A stretch of 48,179 nucleotides of DNA from a phage: sequence record OZ503099.1, one strand, 5' to 3'. The position numbers were made by a program, and so were the translations under genes. This document shows, in pieces, positions 13,725 to 41,128 of the stretch; the first letter of the stretch is position 1, and the number at the start of each line of letters is the position of its first letter. The notes under the pieces are model-generated. The model ran no database searches. It saw only the letters and a list, made by a program, of their open reading frames with translations, and was not told the origin of the DNA.

Positions 13725-13754
13725 GTTGACGTAGATTGATGTGACGTTTATAGT
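13725..13754 (+). promoter_or_regulatory. Promoter of island B with repeated TGACGT(AGA) sites
   Basis: TTGACG (13725-13730), 18 bp, TATAGT (13749-13754); TTGACGTAGATTG at 13725-13737; TGACGT at 13726-13731, 13742-13747 and 13759-13764. Confidence 0.45.
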
Positions 13755-13794: not shown

Positions 13795-13992
13795 ATGAGA
13801 GCAGCAAGCATGTACTACTGTATGTTCCGCAATACCGTGATTGATTTCCGCGATTGTGTTGACGCAATCAGCAACGCTGGTTCCATTGATGACTTCAGCA
13901 TCCCAGAGCGCGGCGCTGCTGAACTAATGTATCACCTGGCTAATGCATACATTGCAAACTATGAACTTTTATTAGAAGAAAGTGGTGAATGA
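13795..13992 (+). CDS. Hypothetical protein
   Basis: ATG 13795 (MRAASMYY...) downstream of predicted promoter. Confidence 0.4.
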   Translation: MRAASMYYCMFRNTVIDFRDCVDAISNAGSIDDFSIPERGAAELMYHLANAYIANYELLLEESGE

Positions 13993-13993
13993 G

Positions 13994-14338
13994 ATGAAAG
14001 AATTTAAAGGTACGCCCGGGCCGTGGGTCGCAGATATTCGCGGAGGTTGCGCAGCTATTTACCCGTCTTGTCGAACTGATGACACGCCGGGCTGTCACCA
14101 CGACGATGACAGAAATATTGCCTTCTCTAGCAAGGGTGCAAAATACAACGGTATGCATTGGGAGATTGATGGCAGCGTTGTGCATGACTTTAATTTAATG
14201 GCAGCGGCCCCTGAGTTGCTTGAAGCTCTGCAAAAAATGCTTGGCAAGGCATACAAACAAAACTGGAATGAGCAATACCCAGAAGAATTGCTGTTAGCTG
14301 AAGAATCTATCAAGAAAGCATTAGGAAAGAAACAATGA
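13994..14338 (+). CDS. Hypothetical protein
   Basis: 114-aa ORF (MKEFKGTPGPW...), Cys/His-containing. Confidence 0.45.
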   Translation: MKEFKGTPGPWVADIRGGCAAIYPSCRTDDTPGCHHDDDRNIAFSSKGAKYNGMHWEIDGSVVHDFNLMAAAPELLEALQKMLGKAYKQNWNEQYPEELLLAEESIKKALGKKQ

Positions 14339-15144
14339 AAACACTAAGCAAAATCTATTCAGACAAAGAAACGCGCAACGGTATTGCTGTTAACAAAACC
14401 TATCTCGTGCCAGTGGAGCGAATCTATCTGGAGCCGGGATATAACATCCGTGAAGCAGATGAGCAACACGTTGAATATTTCGCTCAGTGCTGGGAATCAG
14501 GTCAGCCATTGCCAGCATTAACAGTTATCCCTGACGACAAAGGAATCCGCATTCTTGATGGACAGCATCGCTATCTCGGCGCATTGCGTGCCATTGAGCG
14601 CGGTGCACCAATCGTTCGCATTGAGTGTAAGGATTTCACTGGCGATGAGGCAGACAAAATCGCCTTCATGGTGTCATCCAGTCAGGGTAAGCAGCTTGAC
14701 CCGTTTGAGCGCGCAAAGGCTTATACGCGACTGAAGGGCTTTGGATGGACGAATGAAGAAATCGCCAAGAAGGTAGGGCGCTCAGTGTCTGACGTGCAAA
14801 TGCATTTGTCGTTGGGTGATGTGCCAGCGGAAGTAAAAGCGCGCATCAGTGCTGGGCAAATCAGCTATGCAAACGCCGTAGCAGTAACGCGTGAGCACGG
14901 AGATGATGCGGTAAAAGTTATCGACGAGGCAGTCGAAGAAGCGAAGGCGCAAGGCAAGGATAAGGTCACAGCGAAGGTGCTGAAGTCGAAAAAGATTAAG
15001 CCAGTGGACCGCCTGATTGAGTTACTGAAGCCAGCAGACCACGTGATTCTTCCTGCTGGTCATGTGGTGGTTGAGGATGAGGAATTTATCCAGATTCCTG
15101 TTGCTGATATTCACGAGGTCATGGCAATTCTGGAGAAGATGTGA
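14335..15144 (+). CDS. ParB/Srx-fold (ParB N-terminal-like, DGQHR motif) protein
   Basis: 269 aa with ...GIRILDGQHRYLGALRAIERG... in the N-terminal third, typical of ParB-like nuclease/NTPase domains. Confidence 0.55.
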   Translation: MKTLSKIYSDKETRNGIAVNKTYLVPVERIYLEPGYNIREADEQHVEYFAQCWESGQPLPALTVIPDDKGIRILDGQHRYLGALRAIERGAPIVRIECKDFTGDEADKIAFMVSSSQGKQLDPFERAKAYTRLKGFGWTNEEIAKKVGRSVSDVQMHLSLGDVPAEVKARISAGQISYANAVAVTREHGDDAVKVIDEAVEEAKAQGKDKVTAKVLKSKKIKPVDRLIELLKPADHVILPAGHVVVEDEEFIQIPVADIHEVMAILEKM

Positions 15145-15335
15145 TGAGTAAGTATGAAGAGTTGGACCTGAAGATATTGCACATGCTTTCTGTTAAGCCA
15201 ACTCCTGTTTTTGATATATGGCTTAAGTTTCGTGATGATGTTAGAGACATTACGGTTATTGATCGGCGTATGCAGGTACTGAAAAAGAAAGGTCTTGTTT
15301 ACAACGTTCGCGGATGTGGTTGGGTTAAGCTATGA
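15144..15335 (+). CDS. Small protein, possible winged-helix DNA binder
   Basis: 63 aa; helix-rich pattern (LKILHML...RMQVLKKKGLV); TGATG overlap with upstream gene. Confidence 0.35.
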   Translation: MSKYEELDLKILHMLSVKPTPVFDIWLKFRDDVRDITVIDRRMQVLKKKGLVYNVRGCGWVKL

Positions 15336-15505
15336 CACCAGAACAATTCATCGAAAAACAACTGCGCGCCAAGCTGACTGACATCGACCAGATGGCAATT
15401 GATGCGGCGATTCAGTATTACAAGCGCAATCAGAGCGCAAAGAAGGGAGGCATTTTTGAGGAATGCCTGAAGGTTGCAAAACAGCACATGATTAAGGTGA
15501 AGTGA
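15332..15505 (+). CDS. Hypothetical small protein (57 aa)
   Basis: ATG 15332 to TGA 15505, hand-translated; ATGA/TGATG overlaps with both neighbours. Confidence 0.35.
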   Translation: MTPEQFIEKQLRAKLTDIDQMAIDAAIQYYKRNQSAKKGGIFEECLKVAKQHMIKVK

Positions 15506-16044
15506 TGAAACTAAAAATCAGCAAGCTATTACTTGAATCAGCGTTAATCTTTCAGGCGCGCAATGATGTGCGTTACTACCTGAATGGCATTTGCTTTATG
15601 CCAGATGGTCGCATTGCCTCAACTGACGGTCATCGTGCGTTTATTGGCGGAAGCCATGACAATAAGCTGACAGAAAATGTGATCATCAAGATTGGAAAGT
15701 CTCCAACGAAACGCTATGAGTACGCCATCATTGATACCAAGGCGAAAATTGCAACGTATCATGATGAAGCTGGCGCGATGGTTGGCGCTGGTATCTGCGA
15801 AGAGATTGATGGTCGATTCCCAGATATTGATCGCGTGATACCAAAGGAAACGAAGGCAGCAGAGGAAATTGGTTTCAATGCTGGCTACCTTGTGGATGTC
15901 GAGAAAGTGGCTAAGCTGTTTAATCCTAAATTCTGTGGTGTCAAATTTGAACTGAATGGAAATACAAATGCAGCAGTTTGCTGTCTTAGTGCGCCATCTG
16001 GCGAGACTGCGAAGATTGTTGTTATGCCGATGAGGATTGATTGA
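15505..16044 (+). CDS. Truncated beta sliding clamp (DnaN)-like protein
   Basis: NDVRYYLNG...ASTDGHRAF, IDGRFPDIDRVIPK and C-terminal GFNAGYLVDV...KIVVMPMRID match my recollection of E. coli DnaN domain II/III segments and its C-terminus. Confidence 0.65.
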   Translation: MKLKISKLLLESALIFQARNDVRYYLNGICFMPDGRIASTDGHRAFIGGSHDNKLTENVIIKIGKSPTKRYEYAIIDTKAKIATYHDEAGAMVGAGICEEIDGRFPDIDRVIPKETKAAEEIGFNAGYLVDVEKVAKLFNPKFCGVKFELNGNTNAAVCCLSAPSGETAKIVVMPMRID

Positions 16045-16226
16045 TGGACATCAAAGAGAAAACAAAACTGGCTGCCATCGCTGCGCGTGATGCTTTAAAC
16101 ATGGGTTGCAGCGTAAGAGCGGCAAACGAAGCGTTTAATGAAATTGCTGGTTTTTATTTAAACCATAGCGGAAAACGAGATTTCATTAAGTTAGTTAACT
16201 TCTATGCAGACCCAGATTGTCAGTAA
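16044..16226 (+). CDS. Hypothetical small protein
   Basis: 60-aa ORF; TGATG overlap with clamp-like gene; last gene before terminator. Confidence 0.4.
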   Translation: MDIKEKTKLAAIAARDALNMGCSVRAANEAFNEIAGFYLNHSGKRDFIKLVNFYADPDCQ

Positions 16227-16228
16227 AC

Positions 16229-16257
16229 CAAAGCCCCTTCACGGGGCTTTCCTTTTA
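16229..16257. terminator. Rho-independent terminator
   Basis: AAAGCCCC-TTCA-CGGGGCTTT hairpin followed by CCTTTTATC. Confidence 0.6.
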
Positions 16258-31386: not shown

Positions 31387-32811
31387 TTATCGCCTGCGAC
31401 GGATTAGCATTCCACTGCCACGCTGAACGATGTGGTCATTGAGTGCATAACGAACCGCGTCCCAGTAGTGGTTATATGCATCAACAATATCAGTCAGCAC
31501 ATTCCCTGTCAGCTTATCAACTTTGTAGCTGTACATTGCCGCCTCATTCTGCATCTCCTTGCATCGTTCGTGAATGACAATGCTGTCGCAGCCGCGTAAC
31601 CATGTCACGCCATCCTCGACACTGCCGGGCCATTTTGTGCATGGATGAATGTCAAAGCCAGAGCGCTTGATGTGGCTGATAGTTTCTGGTCGCGCGCAGT
31701 CGGCATACCATCGTGCGCGCTTAGCCATCGGGAATGATTGCTCCATCGCAGCTGGCGTGTCGGTAATCTCAAGCCCCACCTTTCCGTACTCGCGATTAAT
31801 ATAAATATTGCGTCGCCCGCCGGGTAACTCTTCGATGTAAACCTCAACCATTGCGGTTGGATCGGTGGAAAACCCAAAGTCCATCCCGAAGTATGGTCCA
31901 TGCCATTCAGGCTTGACCTCGAAGTTATCAATGAGCCATTTTCCGCCAAATACCTGTTCGTCGCTACGCTTGTTGAATTTTCCTTCATACACCCAAAGGT
32001 AGCGATCATAATCCACTGCCTTCATCTGGTTCATGTGCTGTTTAAGTTCTTCCGTGAACCACGGGTTGTGAACGTAGTTAACATTAACAACAACGATGTC
32101 ATCATCCTGATATATGCCATCTACCATCTTGTCGATGTAAGGCTCAACAAAGTTAGTCCATGTCGGGTCCGTCTCTTTGTTCGGGTTAAAAACAATAATA
32201 ATTTCAGAACCAGCGGCGCGCACCGTTGGAATTAACGTATCCCATGACACCTGACTGATGTTTTCGGATTCTTCACAGAACACGTCTGTAAGGCCAGCCA
32301 TGCCTTTGATTGCGGTTATGTTTCGCCAAAGGCCACGAAAAACAAACTTTGATCTCGTTGTGTGGTGTGTTATCTCGCCATCCACGCAACGATATTCCTG
32401 AGTGTGCCCCTTCCTGTTTATCTCATCAACCAGTTCGGCATAGCTTGATTCTTTGATTGAGTTCTGTATCTCACGGAAGCATCCGACGCGGCTGTTGCGG
32501 AATCTTGCCTTTTCTATAAGGTAAGAAACAACGTTAGCCGTCTTTCCGCTGCCCCTACCCCCATAGAACACCTTGAAACGGCGAGGATAAAGCAGCAGCT
32601 CCATTCGCTCAGGTATTAATATTGTTGGCTTCTCGTCTGTTTCTGACACGCCAGTGGCTGTCATTTTAAGGCACTTAACCACATTCGGTGTACCGTCAGG
32701 CAATAGCTTATCGACAATACCGAAAACAGAAGACTCTGGTTTTGCAGTTGAATTGCCTACTGCTTGCTCAAGTTTTTCTATCGCAACGCTTGAGAGTCTT
32801 TTACGCGCCAT
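31387..32811 (-). CDS. Terminase large subunit
   Basis: Walker A YGGRGSGKT near the N-terminus, conserved acidic nuclease-type residues in the C-terminal half, 474 aa. Confidence 0.8.
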   Translation of the reverse strand: MARKRLSSVAIEKLEQAVGNSTAKPESSVFGIVDKLLPDGTPNVVKCLKMTATGVSETDEKPTILIPERMELLLYPRRFKVFYGGRGSGKTANVVSYLIEKARFRNSRVGCFREIQNSIKESSYAELVDEINRKGHTQEYRCVDGEITHHTTRSKFVFRGLWRNITAIKGMAGLTDVFCEESENISQVSWDTLIPTVRAAGSEIIIVFNPNKETDPTWTNFVEPYIDKMVDGIYQDDDIVVVNVNYVHNPWFTEELKQHMNQMKAVDYDRYLWVYEGKFNKRSDEQVFGGKWLIDNFEVKPEWHGPYFGMDFGFSTDPTAMVEVYIEELPGGRRNIYINREYGKVGLEITDTPAAMEQSFPMAKRARWYADCARPETISHIKRSGFDIHPCTKWPGSVEDGVTWLRGCDSIVIHERCKEMQNEAAMYSYKVDKLTGNVLTDIVDAYNHYWDAVRYALNDHIVQRGSGMLIRRRR

Positions 32812-33319
32812 GATTGCAAAATTCTCCCTGATGTTTCTCCCTGAACTGTCTTATTGCACGATCAGCATCATCAATTGATGAAAACCTACCTATTTTGTGA
32901 TACTTGCCAAATAACCAGCATTGGGCTATCCACTTTCCCCTTTGATTATCCCAGCTAACTCCCTTGATTCCAGATGTGTTGTTTTTTTGCATCCTCTTGT
33001 TCCACTGATTCTGTGATGTTGTGGCCAGTCTTAAATTTTTAATCCTGTTATCGTTGCGAATGCCATTAATGTGGTCAACTTGTTCTTCAGGCCAAGCTCC
33101 ATAGACGTAAAGCCATGCCAGCCTATGAGCAAGATAGATTCTTCCACTTATTCCTATTTCCACATACCCCTTCTTAGGTTTTATCCTGCCAGCAATGCTT
33201 CCAGAATTTATTCTTCTGCTTGGCTTACTTAACCACGTGAAAACACCAGTGTCTGGATTGTAATGCAGGAGGTGTTTAAGTCTCTCTTGAGTGATGGGCA
33301 ACTCTTTTAATGATGGCAT
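32801..33319 (-). CDS. HNH homing endonuclease with AP2-type domain
   Basis: DHINGIRNDNRIKNLRLATTSQNQWN plus SGIKGVSWDNQRGKWIAQ; paralogue of 4710-5201 and 40538-41128; sits between putative small and large terminase genes. Confidence 0.75.
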   Translation of the reverse strand: MPSLKELPITQERLKHLLHYNPDTGVFTWLSKPSRRINSGSIAGRIKPKKGYVEIGISGRIYLAHRLAWLYVYGAWPEEQVDHINGIRNDNRIKNLRLATTSQNQWNKRMQKNNTSGIKGVSWDNQRGKWIAQCWLFGKYHKIGRFSSIDDADRAIRQFREKHQGEFCNHGA

Positions 33320-33422
33320 GATTGAATCCTCGGTTACAGGCGGTCTATTGGTTGGATGCGGCAGCCCGGAGACCAATCCGGGCAGGGAGCTACCCTTTGC
33401 CGCATTAATTATTATAAATCAG

Positions 33423-36218: not shown

Positions 36219-36404
36219 TCATTTCTTAGAAGCCTTATATTCATCTTCAGTCATCGCATATGCCTCGCAAATCATGTTCGCTGCATCAATGATTGCATTT
36301 GAACGCATGTCAGCAGGAAGACTTGCAACCTGTTGTGATAATGCCATGCATATATCGCTGAACAACTTCATCTGGTCGATGTCGTACGTGCTTTCCTCTT
36401 TCAT
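36219..36404 (-). CDS. Hypothetical acidic small protein
   Basis: 61-aa ORF; first gene downstream of minus-strand promoter. Confidence 0.4.
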   Translation of the reverse strand: MKEESTYDIDQMKLFSDICMALSQQVASLPADMRSNAIIDAANMICEAYAMTEDEYKASKK

Positions 36405-36924: not shown

Positions 36925-37146
36925 ATGAAGGTAACAATGGCAACTCAATTTGATCTGGATAATGCAAGGAAGAGAACAAAGTGGCCTTTTAGCAGGATGA
37001 AGCCTGGAGACATTGTGTGCATATCAGAAAGTGAATTCAGCAATACAAAGGTTCAGAGAAAAGCCCATGCTTATGGGCATGCAACAGGAAAATCATTCAC
37101 ATGCAAATCAAGTGATGGGAAAGTAATCATCAAAAGGATCTCATAA
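36925..37146 (+). CDS. Hypothetical small protein P1 (73 aa)
   Basis: Strong RBS; stop overlaps P2 start (TAATG). Confidence 0.5.
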   Translation: MKVTMATQFDLDNARKRTKWPFSRMKPGDIVCISESEFSNTKVQRKAHAYGHATGKSFTCKSSDGKVIIKRIS

Positions 37147-38633
37147 TGTCGATAAAAACCATTTATGACCTGACTTCTGACATAAACAAAGACAGATGGT
37201 ACGACATCACAAAACCACCTGGACTTGCTGGTGAAATTGCTGATGATATTGCCGCTGGTGAGGTTCGTGAACAGCCAAGACTTAGAGCTGTTGCTGCTCT
37301 TCATGAACTGATTATTGCCAGCAAAGGCAAGATTAAAACACCAAGCGGTATGAAGGGAAATCTCCTCACTATCTGTATCGCAGATTCAGCAGGAGGAAAG
37401 GATAGATCACAAAGCCATTTCAAAATCATGGCGAGAGATATCGAAAAGGGTATGCATGTCTTTGGTCGGATTGCATCATCAAAAGATATCGGTCGGTCAC
37501 TGATAAACCATGATGGAGTTGCGACATTTATTATTGATGAATGTCATGGATTGTTTGGTGTAATGACGCAGAAGAATGGCGCAGCTTACATGGCTGAACT
37601 TGGTTCTGAAATTCTGTCTGTTTATTCCGACAGGCTGAAGAAGTTTTCAGACCTTGATGCTGTTAACGCCAAAGAGCAGCTTGAGAAGGAACTCAAGAAG
37701 CTGAAAGCTGAAGTTAAGGATAAAGGGATTGTAGAGTCAGAATACCGCAGACGCGAGCAGCAGCTTGAGCGTGAAATATTGTGGCCAATTCAGCAGGGTA
37801 TCGAAGACCCGATATTCTCGATGATGTGCTTTTCAACACCAGAGAAGCTGTCCAGTATTATTTGTTCAGAAAATATCGGAACAGGCTTGATTGGTCGAGC
37901 AATCTTCATTAAAGGGAAAGACGGTCGCGCAAGGAAATTACGCAAATATGGCCATAAAACACCACAGTCTCTAATAGATAAAATGAAGGCAGTGGAAAAA
38001 TCATCACCACAGGTTGCAAGATACGAAAACGATGTTGTGCAGGCGCTGGCTGAATCACTTGATGACAGATTTGAGGAACTGGTAAATGATGTTTCTCTTG
38101 GCGCAGTAATTGCCCGTTCATTCGAGCAGGTTGAAAAAGTTGCGACTGCACTTTCTGCTGGGAATAAAGGTGTAATTACAGAAGAAATGCTGATGTGGTC
38201 ATTCTGTTTTGTTTGTGAAAGCCTGACAGACGTTATGAGCATGCTAAAAGTGAACGAGAGCCAGGAAGAACTCGGAACAATGGCCAGATGGAATGAGATT
38301 AAAAATAGAATTGAGAATATCCTTTCTGGAAGAACGAAGGATGACAGGATGCCTCAGTCTATTCTCGTTCAGAGGGCTGTTAAAACAAAATCCCTTAAGG
38401 CTCTCGCTGATGCAATAGCAAGATCTAATGGGGAAGATTTTTCCTATGGAGCAAAAACTCTTGTTACTCCAGTAATACAATCCCTCATGGCATCTCGTGC
38501 AATTGATGCTGTAGGTTGCGGTTACTGGATTAACGACGCAAGTAAATTTGAAGGCACGAAAATGAGCGTTAAATTCACGCAAATTGTTGATGGGATTGGC
38601 ATGAATATGGCTGCAATGAGGGGTTGGCGATGA
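37146..38633 (+). CDS. Hypothetical protein P2 (495 aa) with degenerate nucleotide-binding-like motifs
   Basis: CIADSAGGKD and FIIDECHGLF segments about 45 aa apart; rare-codon (AGA/AGG/ATA) rich; no family I can assign. Confidence 0.55.
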   Translation: MSIKTIYDLTSDINKDRWYDITKPPGLAGEIADDIAAGEVREQPRLRAVAALHELIIASKGKIKTPSGMKGNLLTICIADSAGGKDRSQSHFKIMARDIEKGMHVFGRIASSKDIGRSLINHDGVATFIIDECHGLFGVMTQKNGAAYMAELGSEILSVYSDRLKKFSDLDAVNAKEQLEKELKKLKAEVKDKGIVESEYRRREQQLEREILWPIQQGIEDPIFSMMCFSTPEKLSSIICSENIGTGLIGRAIFIKGKDGRARKLRKYGHKTPQSLIDKMKAVEKSSPQVARYENDVVQALAESLDDRFEELVNDVSLGAVIARSFEQVEKVATALSAGNKGVITEEMLMWSFCFVCESLTDVMSMLKVNESQEELGTMARWNEIKNRIENILSGRTKDDRMPQSILVQRAVKTKSLKALADAIARSNGEDFSYGAKTLVTPVIQSLMASRAIDAVGCGYWINDASKFEGTKMSVKFTQIVDGIGMNMAAMRGWR

Positions 38634-39404: not shown

Positions 39405-39434
39405 AAAACCCTCCAGTCGGAGGGTTTATTTTAT
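39405..39434. terminator. Rho-independent terminator (bidirectional)
   Basis: AACCCTCC-AGTC-GGAGGGTT hairpin followed by TATTTTAT. Confidence 0.6.
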
Positions 39435-40384
39435 CTGCTTACTGACATTTTCTCTATCAACTCGCCAGCGTCATAAATCTTTCTTCTGATTCTCTTCGCC
39501 ATCCTGATTGTGTCAGCATCATCAGGCAGCATCACCGGTAGTCCTGCGTTTTCCGCAGCGCAAAGTTCGTCAAATTTATAATTAACTATGCAGCGTAACC
39601 GTGCTTTCGTCTCATCACTAACAGAACGCACCACTTCCCACATGTTTTCCGGCGACCAGCAACACCAGACATGAGCGCCAGTGAAGTAATGGCACTTCCA
39701 CGCATCGGCATAATCAGACACCAGGTAAATGAACTTTCCGTTGTCTTCTCCGATTGGGCTTATCGCGCCGCGCGTGAGTTTGCCGTTGATGGCTGAGTCC
39801 TTGTTGTATCCTGCGCGGAAAAACGTTTTGAATGAATCACCATCCATGCCAATGAATGCCACGTTGCACGGCTTCATTGTGTCAGCTCGCATCATCTCAA
39901 CCGCAATAAGCTCTCCAGATTTACCTCTGGCAACATTAACGTCGCAACCAATACCATTTATCAACGTCCACTCATTCATCGCTACACGCGTCGTTTTAGC
40001 CATGATTGCGGCGACTTCCTGTTCGGTGATGAAGTCATCGTTGTAATTTATCTTCGGCATCTCCTTCCTGATTGCCTCCAGCTTTTCGCATGGGTGCATG
40101 TTCAGGAATCCTCCCAGCGCCTCCAGTGCTTCAGGAAAGCTCATGCCTGAAAGTTTCATCAGCCAGTTCATGCCGCTGCCGGAGCCGCACTGATTGCAGA
40201 TTGCACCGCCATCGCCTTTTGTTTCTAAGTTGTCATCAAAGCGATATCTGTCTGTTCCACCACAACTTGGACATGGCTGGTGCTTACCATTGAAAACTCT
40301 GCTATCCACATTGACGATAGACATGATGGCAGCCTGCCAGTTATTTCTCATTAGAGGCTCGATTTCCTTCCAGTCGTACTTCAT
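39431..40384 (-). CDS. DNA primase-like protein (zinc-ribbon plus putative TOPRIM)
   Basis: CPSCGGTDRYRFDD...CNQCGSG zinc-binding motif near N-terminus; downstream acidic E and MDGD elements; adjacent to helicase operon. Confidence 0.5.
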   Translation of the reverse strand: MKYDWKEIEPLMRNNWQAAIMSIVNVDSRVFNGKHQPCPSCGGTDRYRFDDNLETKGDGGAICNQCGSGSGMNWLMKLSGMSFPEALEALGGFLNMHPCEKLEAIRKEMPKINYNDDFITEQEVAAIMAKTTRVAMNEWTLINGIGCDVNVARGKSGELIAVEMMRADTMKPCNVAFIGMDGDSFKTFFRAGYNKDSAINGKLTRGAISPIGEDNGKFIYLVSDYADAWKCHYFTGAHVWCCWSPENMWEVVRSVSDETKARLRCIVNYKFDELCAAENAGLPVMLPDDADTIRMAKRIRRKIYDAGELIEKMSVSR

Positions 40385-40396
40385 AAAATCTTCCTG

Positions 40397-40479
40397 TTGA
40401 CGATGATGTAGATTCATTGTAATTTACTCACATGAAACGCGCAAGCGTTCTTGACATGAAACGCAACTGAGTTTAACAT
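40397..40479 (+). promoter_or_regulatory. Tandem promoters of the helicase/recombination operon with CATGAAACGC direct repeat
   Basis: TTGACG (40397-40402), 17 bp, TAATTT (40420-40425); TTGACA (40451-40456), 17 bp, TAACAT (40474-40479); repeat at 40431-40440 and 40455-40464. Confidence 0.4.
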
Positions 40480-40537
40480 CGAGGATAAGAAATGGCTATC
40501 ACTCTGAAAAAGTGCAAAAATTGTGGGGGAGAATTCT

Positions 40538-41128
40538 ATGGAACATCAAGAGCTGAGTTTTGTTGTTCAGGATGCAGACTCAAAAGTTTCCGAGAAAAAA
40601 AGAAGGGTGCTAAAAATTGATGTTGATTACGTGACATCAAGGTTAGAGGTTGTCAATGGACGCCTGTATTGGAAAAGGAGAGATGAATTAACGCCATACC
40701 ACAAAACATGGAATGCACGGTATCCGGGGAAACCTGCTGACAATAAGCTTGACAAAATGAATTACAGGCTTGTGATGATTGATGGTGTTTATTATAAAGC
40801 ACATAGAATTGTATGGGCTATATGCAAACAGCAAGACCCTGGAGCTATGGACATTGATCACATCAATACAATTAAGAACGATAACAGGATAGAAAATCTC
40901 AGGTTGGCTGATTGCAGTCAAAACAAATGGAATAAAGGCTTATCATCAAATAACACTAGCGGATACAAAGGTGTTAGTTGGTTCAAAAGGGAGAAACGGT
41001 GGGTTGCTCAGATTTGGGTTAGAGGTAAAAAGAAAGTTATTGGTTATTTTAATACCCCTGAAGATGCACATAAAGCGTATGCAAAAGCATCATCAAGTCT
41101 TCATGGTGAATTTGGTAGGGTAAAATAA
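40538..41128 (+). CDS. HNH homing endonuclease with AP2-type domain
   Basis: DHINTIKNDNRIENLRLADCSQNKWN plus SGYKGVSWFKREKRWVAQIW; stop overlaps helicase start (TAATG). Confidence 0.7.
   Translation: MEHQELSFVVQDADSKVSEKKRRVLKIDVDYVTSRLEVVNGRLYWKRRDELTPYHKTWNARYPGKPADNKLDKMNYRLVMIDGVYYKAHRIVWAICKQQDPGAMDIDHINTIKNDNRIENLRLADCSQNKWNKGLSSNNTSGYKGVSWFKREKRWVAQIWVRGKKKVIGYFNTPEDAHKAYAKASSSLHGEFGRVK

Follow-up and report, generated by a model that had tools for sequence, protein, structure and literature searches.

A short phage homologue of the bacterial beta sliding clamp that retains the clamp-binding-motif pocket

Bacterial replication and repair have their central docking hub in the beta sliding clamp (DnaN), which is also an antibiotic target. 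In E. coli a shortened form of it, beta*, a UV-inducible 26-kDa product of an internal start in dnaN, reportedly assembles into a trimer ring that supports processivity (Skaliter, Paz-Elizur and Livneh, J Biol Chem 1996). Phage proteins are also known to act on the clamp. Gp168 of phage Twort is described as plugging the channel of beta (PMC8565349, as cited in PMC11139829), and MuC of phage Mu uses beta for late transcription (PMC12867686).

The protein described here, termed the mini-clamp, is phage-encoded and is itself a relative of beta. Its gene was analysed in a window consisting of the whole of sequence record OZ503099.1 (48,179 nt), which is an essentially complete siphophage genome of ~48 kb. 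Over the mini-clamp region the window is ~90% identical to Salmonella phage IME207 (genus Shuimuvirus), to Escherichia phages swi2, C1 and HC6, and to Shigella phage Sf11. Short "Pol III beta" genes have been flagged in phage annotations for about two decades, and in genome papers the gene serves only as a marker, under the name "DNA polymerase III beta subunit"; literature searches found no functional or architectural study of phage short clamps. Among clamp homologues, the protein is distinctive in an architecture reduced to the pocket.

The mini-clamp gene and its relation to the beta clamp

The gene is found at positions 15505-16044 on the plus strand, with its ATG at 15505 and its TGA at 16042-16044, exactly where the original prediction had placed it, and encodes a protein of 179 aa (19.6 kDa, pI 7.6). 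A Shine-Dalgarno sequence, AAGGTG (15494-15499, plus strand), is read directly from the sequence 5 nt upstream of the ATG. The mini-clamp gene is the fifth of a compact plus strand operon that extends from ~13982 to 16226 and is flanked, in convergent and divergent orientation, by opposite-strand structural genes. It is preceded, all on the plus strand, by genes for a 118-aa protein (PHROG 1273; 13982-14338), a ParB-like HTH protein of 269 aa (14335-15144), a 64-aa protein (PHROG 7185; 15141-15335) and a 57-aa protein (PHROG 4439; 15332-15505), the three PHROG families having no assigned function. It is followed by the last gene of the operon, of 60 aa from an ATG at 16044 (16044-16226, plus strand), for which no family match was found. 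The mini-clamp ATG overlaps the TGA of the 57-aa gene by one base, with the A in common (TGATG), and the same one-base overlap (TGATG) joins its own TGA to the ATG of the 60-aa gene. Thus, with start and stop codons that overlap both neighbours, the mini-clamp gene belongs to a tightly coupled operon.

At the head of the operon a sigma-70-like promoter candidate, TTGACG-17-TATAGT (13726-13754, plus strand), is proposed from its consensus match of 10 out of 12. A strong, GC-rich hairpin terminator, AAAGCCCC-TTCAC-GGGGCTTT (16230-16250), separates the operon from the head genes that converge on it. No PADLOC defence-system model was matched by the mini-clamp or its five operon neighbours.

The original prediction of a phage-encoded, truncated DnaN homologue is borne out, with a similarity far beyond chance. 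A phmmer search of PDB sequences matched only beta clamps, the enterobacterial ones (Enterobacter, E. coli) at E = 5.5e-13 to 3e-12, and aligned mini-clamp residues 7-154 with beta 136-289 and, in a second stretch, residues 118-178 with beta 313-366. Pairwise BLASTP against E. coli beta gave 30% identity (E 4e-13). With hhalign, a family profile built from 131 diverse members aligned to E. coli beta with a probability of 99.5% and E = 3.5e-23, and the alignment is unbroken over beta 137-366 except for one deletion of ~60 residues (beta ~253-312). The E. coli beta sequence used reproduces the HMMER alignment strings, and all literature-numbered residues agree with it. The three DnaN-like segments on which the prediction was founded are genuine: NDVRYYLNG...STDGHRAF aligns to beta 149-178, the linker segment IDGRFPDIDRVIPK to beta 237-250, and the C-terminal KIVVMPMRI to beta 358-366. 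The mini-clamp did not reach the curated Pfam cut-off of 27 bits (PF02768, 17.5 bits; PF02767, 15.8 bits) or the TIGR00663 cut-off of 137.65 (35.6 bits). The mini-clamp is a beta-clamp homologue both by sequence and by fold.

In architecture the mini-clamp represents beta ~130-252, i.e., domain II, fused to beta ~313-366, the C-terminal half of domain III, which is the half that packs on domain II. E. coli beta (PDB 1MMI/2POL) has 366 aa and three full domains. The observation that the phage protein is half the length of a clamp and lacks domain I was therefore right, and domain III has in addition lost its N-terminal half. Structure prediction by AlphaFold2 (AF2) with the 131-member alignment gives a compact monomer with a clamp-like fold (mean pLDDT 97.1, pTM 0.91), whose secondary structure reads beta-alpha-beta-beta-beta, beta-(loop)-beta-beta-beta, linker, alpha-beta-beta-beta. 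The model superposes on real clamps as a single rigid body, and its structural matches are clamps only. In BFVD many viral proteins of 180-250 aa share the fold (TM 0.8-0.88), beside full-length phage clamps.

By DSSP of the model, helix alpha2', the second, pore-lining helix of domain II (beta ~197-209), is replaced by a 9-residue loop in the window subfamily. Of the four channel helices that this span would be expected to carry, the modelled window protein has two. Some other members apparently keep alpha2' by sequence, e.g., IIPRDAIEFLAKKA, as in Acinetobacter phage 4316 (L047 3498-4076) and Bcep43 (L003 3998-4579). With the helix apparently kept in some members and looped out in the window subfamily, the family is structurally heterogeneous.

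Important is what the protein has lost. Domain I of beta bears the pore residues K12, Q15, Q16, R73 and R80 and DNA loop I (PMC5042465). Among the DNA-contact elements, the domain I residues and loop I are gone from the mini-clamp and loop II alone is retained; the equivalents of R197/K198 are G64/K65 and are not conserved in the family. Mutation of I272/L273 renders beta monomeric, and the monomeric form (I272A/L273A) binds DNA and does not tether Pol III for processive synthesis (PMC11139829). Both of these dimer-interface residues fall within the deleted segment, beta 253-312. With domain I also absent, the mini-clamp has neither half of the canonical head-to-tail interface, and a two-subunit ring of the beta type is impossible for the mini-clamp. 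The original prediction had offered two options, that the protein pairs with the host clamp as a heterodimer or that it mimics it. Because both interface halves are deleted, the heterodimer is rejected as unlikely.

Conservation of the clamp-binding-motif pocket

Proteins that dock on beta do so through clamp-binding motifs (CBMs), which occupy a pocket of two subsites. Subsite I consists of R152, L155, T172, G174, H175, R176, L177, P242, R246, V247, V360 and M362, and subsite II of H175, N320, Y323, V344, M362, P363, M364 and R365 (PMC11139829, a beta-clamp review of 2024). In the window protein 16 of the 18 listed residues are identical to those of E. coli beta. The exceptions are L177, which is A, and V344, which is T, although V344 was placed by the weaker C-terminal BLAST alignment and its mapping is uncertain.

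Pocket residues are contributed by the following short stretches of the gene, all on the plus strand. Codons 21-28 (DVRYYLNG, 15565-15588) correspond to beta loop II and pocket subsite I and carry D150, R152, Y154, L155 and G157, each 92-98% conserved. Codons 40-44 (TDGHR, 15622-15636) carry T172, G174, H175 and R176 and form the pocket wall, where H175 bridges the two subsites. The domain II/III linker (beta 238-247), with pocket residues P242, R246 and V247, is encoded by codons 102-111 (DGRFPDIDRV, 15808-15837). Codons 122-128 (IGFNAGY, 15868-15888; beta 317-323) lie immediately 3′ of the point at which 253-312 are deleted and provide N320 and Y323 of subsite II. The C-terminal strand of beta, V360-L366, is represented by codons 172-178 (VVMPMRI, 16018-16038), which supply the pocket floor and the M362 gate. 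The chain terminates one residue after VVMPMRI, like beta, and across the family the proteins end in MPMR[LI], plus or minus one residue. In beta, removal of the last five residues is known to destroy the cleft (PMC2685083).

Conservation was assessed in a sample of 131 diverse family members that are 27-51% identical to the window protein. Near-invariant among these sequences are D21, R23, Y25, L26, G28, T40, G42, H43, P106, Y128, M174 and P175, equivalent to beta D150, R152, Y154, L155, G157, T172, G174, H175, P242, Y323, M362 and P363, respectively. Ten pocket residues are at least 86% conserved. When the start Met is excluded, 10 of the 13 lowest-entropy positions are pocket residues (R152, L155, T172, G174, H175, P242, Y323, M362, P363 and R365). 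Mean column entropy is 1.24 bits in the pocket and 2.75 bits elsewhere, a difference matched by none of 100,000 permutations (p<1e-5). No second conserved protein-binding patch was found over the 131 sequences, and conserved lysines are few (K19, K134 and K137). Selection in the family is focused on the CBM pocket. However, it should be noted that across beta clamps as a whole the pocket is conserved best, so that its retention is partly expected from the way in which homologues are detected.

Distribution, selection and genomic context

By tblastn, 290 of 50,697 phage records contain a homologue, and in 285 of them at least 80% of the query is covered. The hosts of the phages include Salmonella, Escherichia, Vibrio, Klebsiella, Acinetobacter, Proteus, Burkholderia, Pseudomonas and Pantoea. 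An exhaustive HMMER search against 1.8 billion cluster representatives gave 1,977 matches at E <= 1e-3. Among the best 150 of these 1,977 representatives (50% identity clusters), 130 have a length of 160-225 aa, and the first full-length DnaN (373 aa) appears at E 6e-12.

The mini-clamp gene is under strong purifying selection. Comparison with 16 relatives of 73-92% nucleotide identity shows dN/dS values of 0.04-0.13, with dS up to ~2; the IMG/VR relatives were sought with the single window protein, and the search retrieved close relatives only. A recent fragment of a host dnaN gene that lacks expression signals, the case that would have spoken against the original prediction, is contradicted by the 30% identity to beta, by the dN/dS values and by the spread of an old and widespread family.

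With regard to annotation, the protein gives a full-length profile match to PHROG 3007 (E 3.4e-64; residues 1-178 on positions 1-186 of 190), a family labelled "RusA-like Holliday junction resolvase". This label is rejected, as Pfam searches up to E 1 give only DNA_pol3_beta domains and the structural matches are all clamps; no similarity to the RusA family or fold was found in any search. PHROG 947 is also matched (5e-11), and some annotators call the protein a processivity factor. The "RusA-like" label (window 15505-16044; L001 9001-9540; L002 3992-4510) has been copied into RefSeq phage records and is a propagating misannotation. The analysis corrects it, and also warns against reading the gene as a sign of a phage-encoded polymerase subunit.

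The genes that surround the mini-clamp differ between phages. The ParB-like operon is retained in close relatives, and the distant Pseudomonas phage D14E shows a similar arrangement, with genes for a ParB-like protein (L004 1801-2799) and a cytosine methylase. As recurring neighbours, the mini-clamp and the ParB-like HTH protein (14335-15144) may possibly be functionally linked. In three unrelated phages, Sodalis phage SO-1 (Dhillonvirus; L002 3992-4510), Burkholderia phage Bcep43 (L003 3998-4579) and Shewanella phage 1/41 (L049 3504-4052), the head/tail block contains the mini-clamp as a lone gene of opposite orientation, which looks like an independently transcribed insert. Earlier annotations of such lone copies read "possible moron gene product" and, for Bcep43 gp15, "DNA Pol III b subunit fragment". 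SO-1, a phage with a T7-like replisome, encodes a DNA polymerase, a gp2.5-like SSB and a helicase-primase of its own, and thus does not evidently require a beta-type clamp.

A different placement is found in three other distant phages. Acinetobacter phage 4316 has the mini-clamp gene directly after that of DNA polymerase I and ahead of those of VRR-NUC and a helicase. The copy of Edwardsiella phage PEi21 comes after a DNA polymerase gene, and that of Pantoea phage LIET2 after helicase and VRR-NUC genes. The PEi21 copy (L051 3501-4028) is split by an in-frame stop and is annotated as two "RusA-like" CDSs; it is a pseudogene or else the result of a sequencing error. The Pol A proteins of 4316, PEi21 and SO-1 have no terminal CBM.

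In the window phage the replication module is found at 37-46 kb and comprises two primase-like proteins, a helicase, an exonuclease, a Sak4/AAA_24-type annealing ATPase and SSB. The two primase-annotated genes are on opposite strands (37146-38633, plus; 39431-40417, minus), and the zinc ribbon PF08273 is found in the second only. The first, a 495-aa "primase" of PHROG 33132, is without any Pfam domain, and its activity is putative. Two HNH endonuclease genes, both of PHROG 99, are also present in the genome, one between primase and helicase genes (40523-41128, plus) and the other beside the large terminase (32801-33376, minus); they look like homing endonucleases.

No DNA polymerase gene was found among the large ORFs of the window, in a scan that took in every ORF of 262 aa or more. 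With no polymerase gene found, the phage presumably uses the host replicase, i.e., it presumably replicates with host Pol III on host beta. CBM-like strings were searched for across all window ORFs. There are 11, near a rough chance expectation, and none is at the terminus of an operon neighbour; the strings are therefore rejected as evidence of a phage-encoded partner. One of the strings, QMKLF, is a perfect pentapeptide of the clamp-binding type and is found at residue 11 of a putative 61-aa gene (36219-36404, minus), as a chance-level string.

Possible roles and comparison with known systems

The role favored here, to which about an even chance is assigned, is that of a soluble, non-ring pocket module that would bind clamp-binding motifs and act as a decoy for, or competitor of, host beta. 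Off DNA, the mini-clamp would bind motifs of the QL[SD]LF type in host clamp clients, for which it would compete with the host clamp, and it would not serve as a processivity ring. Candidate clients are the alpha and epsilon subunits of Pol III, the clamp-loader delta subunit, Pol II/IV/V, MutS/MutL, Hda and RecB. One or more of these would be diverted during infection, for host takeover or counter-defence. Of the two options in the original prediction, mimicry of the host clamp toward CBM proteins is the one that fits, given the conservation of the pocket in more than 130 members. The presence of the gene in phages with their own replisome, together with its moron-like placement, fits a host-directed accessory function of this kind.

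Other observations weigh against a decoy. In 4316, PEi21 and LIET2 the gene sits in the replication module, adjoining a Pol A, helicase or VRR-NUC gene, which suggests a role in replication; and the window phage, in which no polymerase was found, presumably needs host Pol III and beta. With host Pol III needed, an indiscriminate decoy would harm the phage, so that some selectivity must be assumed. A blanket poisoning of Pol III is therefore awkward for the window phage.

The main rival, which is possible but rather doubtful, is a replisome adaptor or non-ring tether. Here the pocket would recruit a CBM-bearing enzyme to phage DNA or to the phage helicase-primase, the candidates being host Pol III (core or holoenzyme), Pol I and ligase, and another surface would hold DNA or a phage partner. 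The lack of a polymerase among the scanned window ORFs speaks for it, since the host replicase must then be captured, as does the position of the gene beside replication genes in 4316, PEi21 and LIET2. However, the family displays no second conserved patch that could hold such a partner, the neighbouring phage Pol A proteins have no CBM-like terminal motif, and the CBM matches of the window ORFs are at chance level. Many copies are also lone genes far from replication genes. Furthermore, the monomeric I272A/L273A form of beta binds DNA yet fails to tether Pol III processively (PMC11139829).

A genuine clamp of unusual stoichiometry, in which several subunits of 1.5 domains, or a symmetric dimer that pairs its half-domains III, would form a ring or crescent on DNA, appears improbable. 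In its favor, three beta-alpha-beta3 half-domains times four would give the twelve of a clamp ring, and the protein starts at nearly the same place as beta* (about beta 130-135). The "processivity factor" annotation (PHROG 947) and the alpha2' helix apparently kept in 4316 and Bcep43 point the same way. However, the inter-subunit interface segment is deleted and its partner, domain I, is absent; only two of the four expected channel helices remain, and the pore-contact residues are missing or not conserved. The head-to-tail junction would have to join a half-domain to a complete domain, which we infer to be without precedent in the clamp fold, and AF2 predicts a compact monomer with very high confidence. 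A symmetric dimer could conceivably form through the exposed half-domain.

A captured dnaN that persists as a non-functional remnant, decaying or selfish, is hardly credible: the name given to Bcep43 gp15, the split PEi21 copy and the Pfam and TIGRFAM scores under the curated cut-offs suggest it, but it is effectively excluded by the selection analysis (dN/dS 0.04-0.13, dS up to ~2), the length and end points are conserved in more than 130 clusters (50% identity), the gene has a ribosome-binding site and is translationally coupled, and the fold is predicted very confidently. The probability that is left falls to roles other than these four.

The decoy explanation can be extended, tentatively and with a probability well below even, from the window phage to the family. 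Short beta-like proteins may then be widespread and unrecognised phage "hub decoys", each of which would titrate a specific host client as a form of takeover or anti-defence mimicry. One candidate client is the clamp-loader delta subunit, whose capture would shut off host replication. Another is the RecB nuclease domain; its CBM, QVEMEF, was recently reported to be necessary for full DNA degradation by RecBCD (bioRxiv 10.1101/2025.08.20.671105). The family is common (290 phage records), and its proteins are small, confidently modelled and easily expressed, so the mimicry hypothesis is directly testable. If it is true, the mini-clamp would be a natural minimal pocket scaffold for inhibitor screening and a probe for the clamp clients that matter during infection.

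In comparison with known systems, E. coli beta* is similar in that it is N-terminally truncated, starts at about residue 135, has no domain I and keeps the pocket. It differs in that beta* has complete domains II and III, whereas the mini-clamp has only one half of domain III, lacks the interface of that domain, and belongs to a separate, long-diverged gene family. The three-subunit ring of the beta* type takes complete domains II and III, and in the mini-clamp the N-terminal half of III is deleted.

Herpesvirus UL42, a processivity factor without a ring, is an analogy for the non-ring tether. However, HSV UL42, HCMV UL44 and EBV BMRF1 have two full domains and a strongly basic DNA-binding face, are of eukaryotic-virus origin, and show no sequence similarity to the mini-clamp.

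Gp168 and MuC are like the mini-clamp in that all three represent phage strategies around the host beta clamp hub. Both of these proteins bind the host clamp and have no clamp homology, whereas the mini-clamp would imitate the docking site and compete for its clients. A stand-alone phage copy of the docking pocket would be a different strategy, the mimicry of the hub itself.
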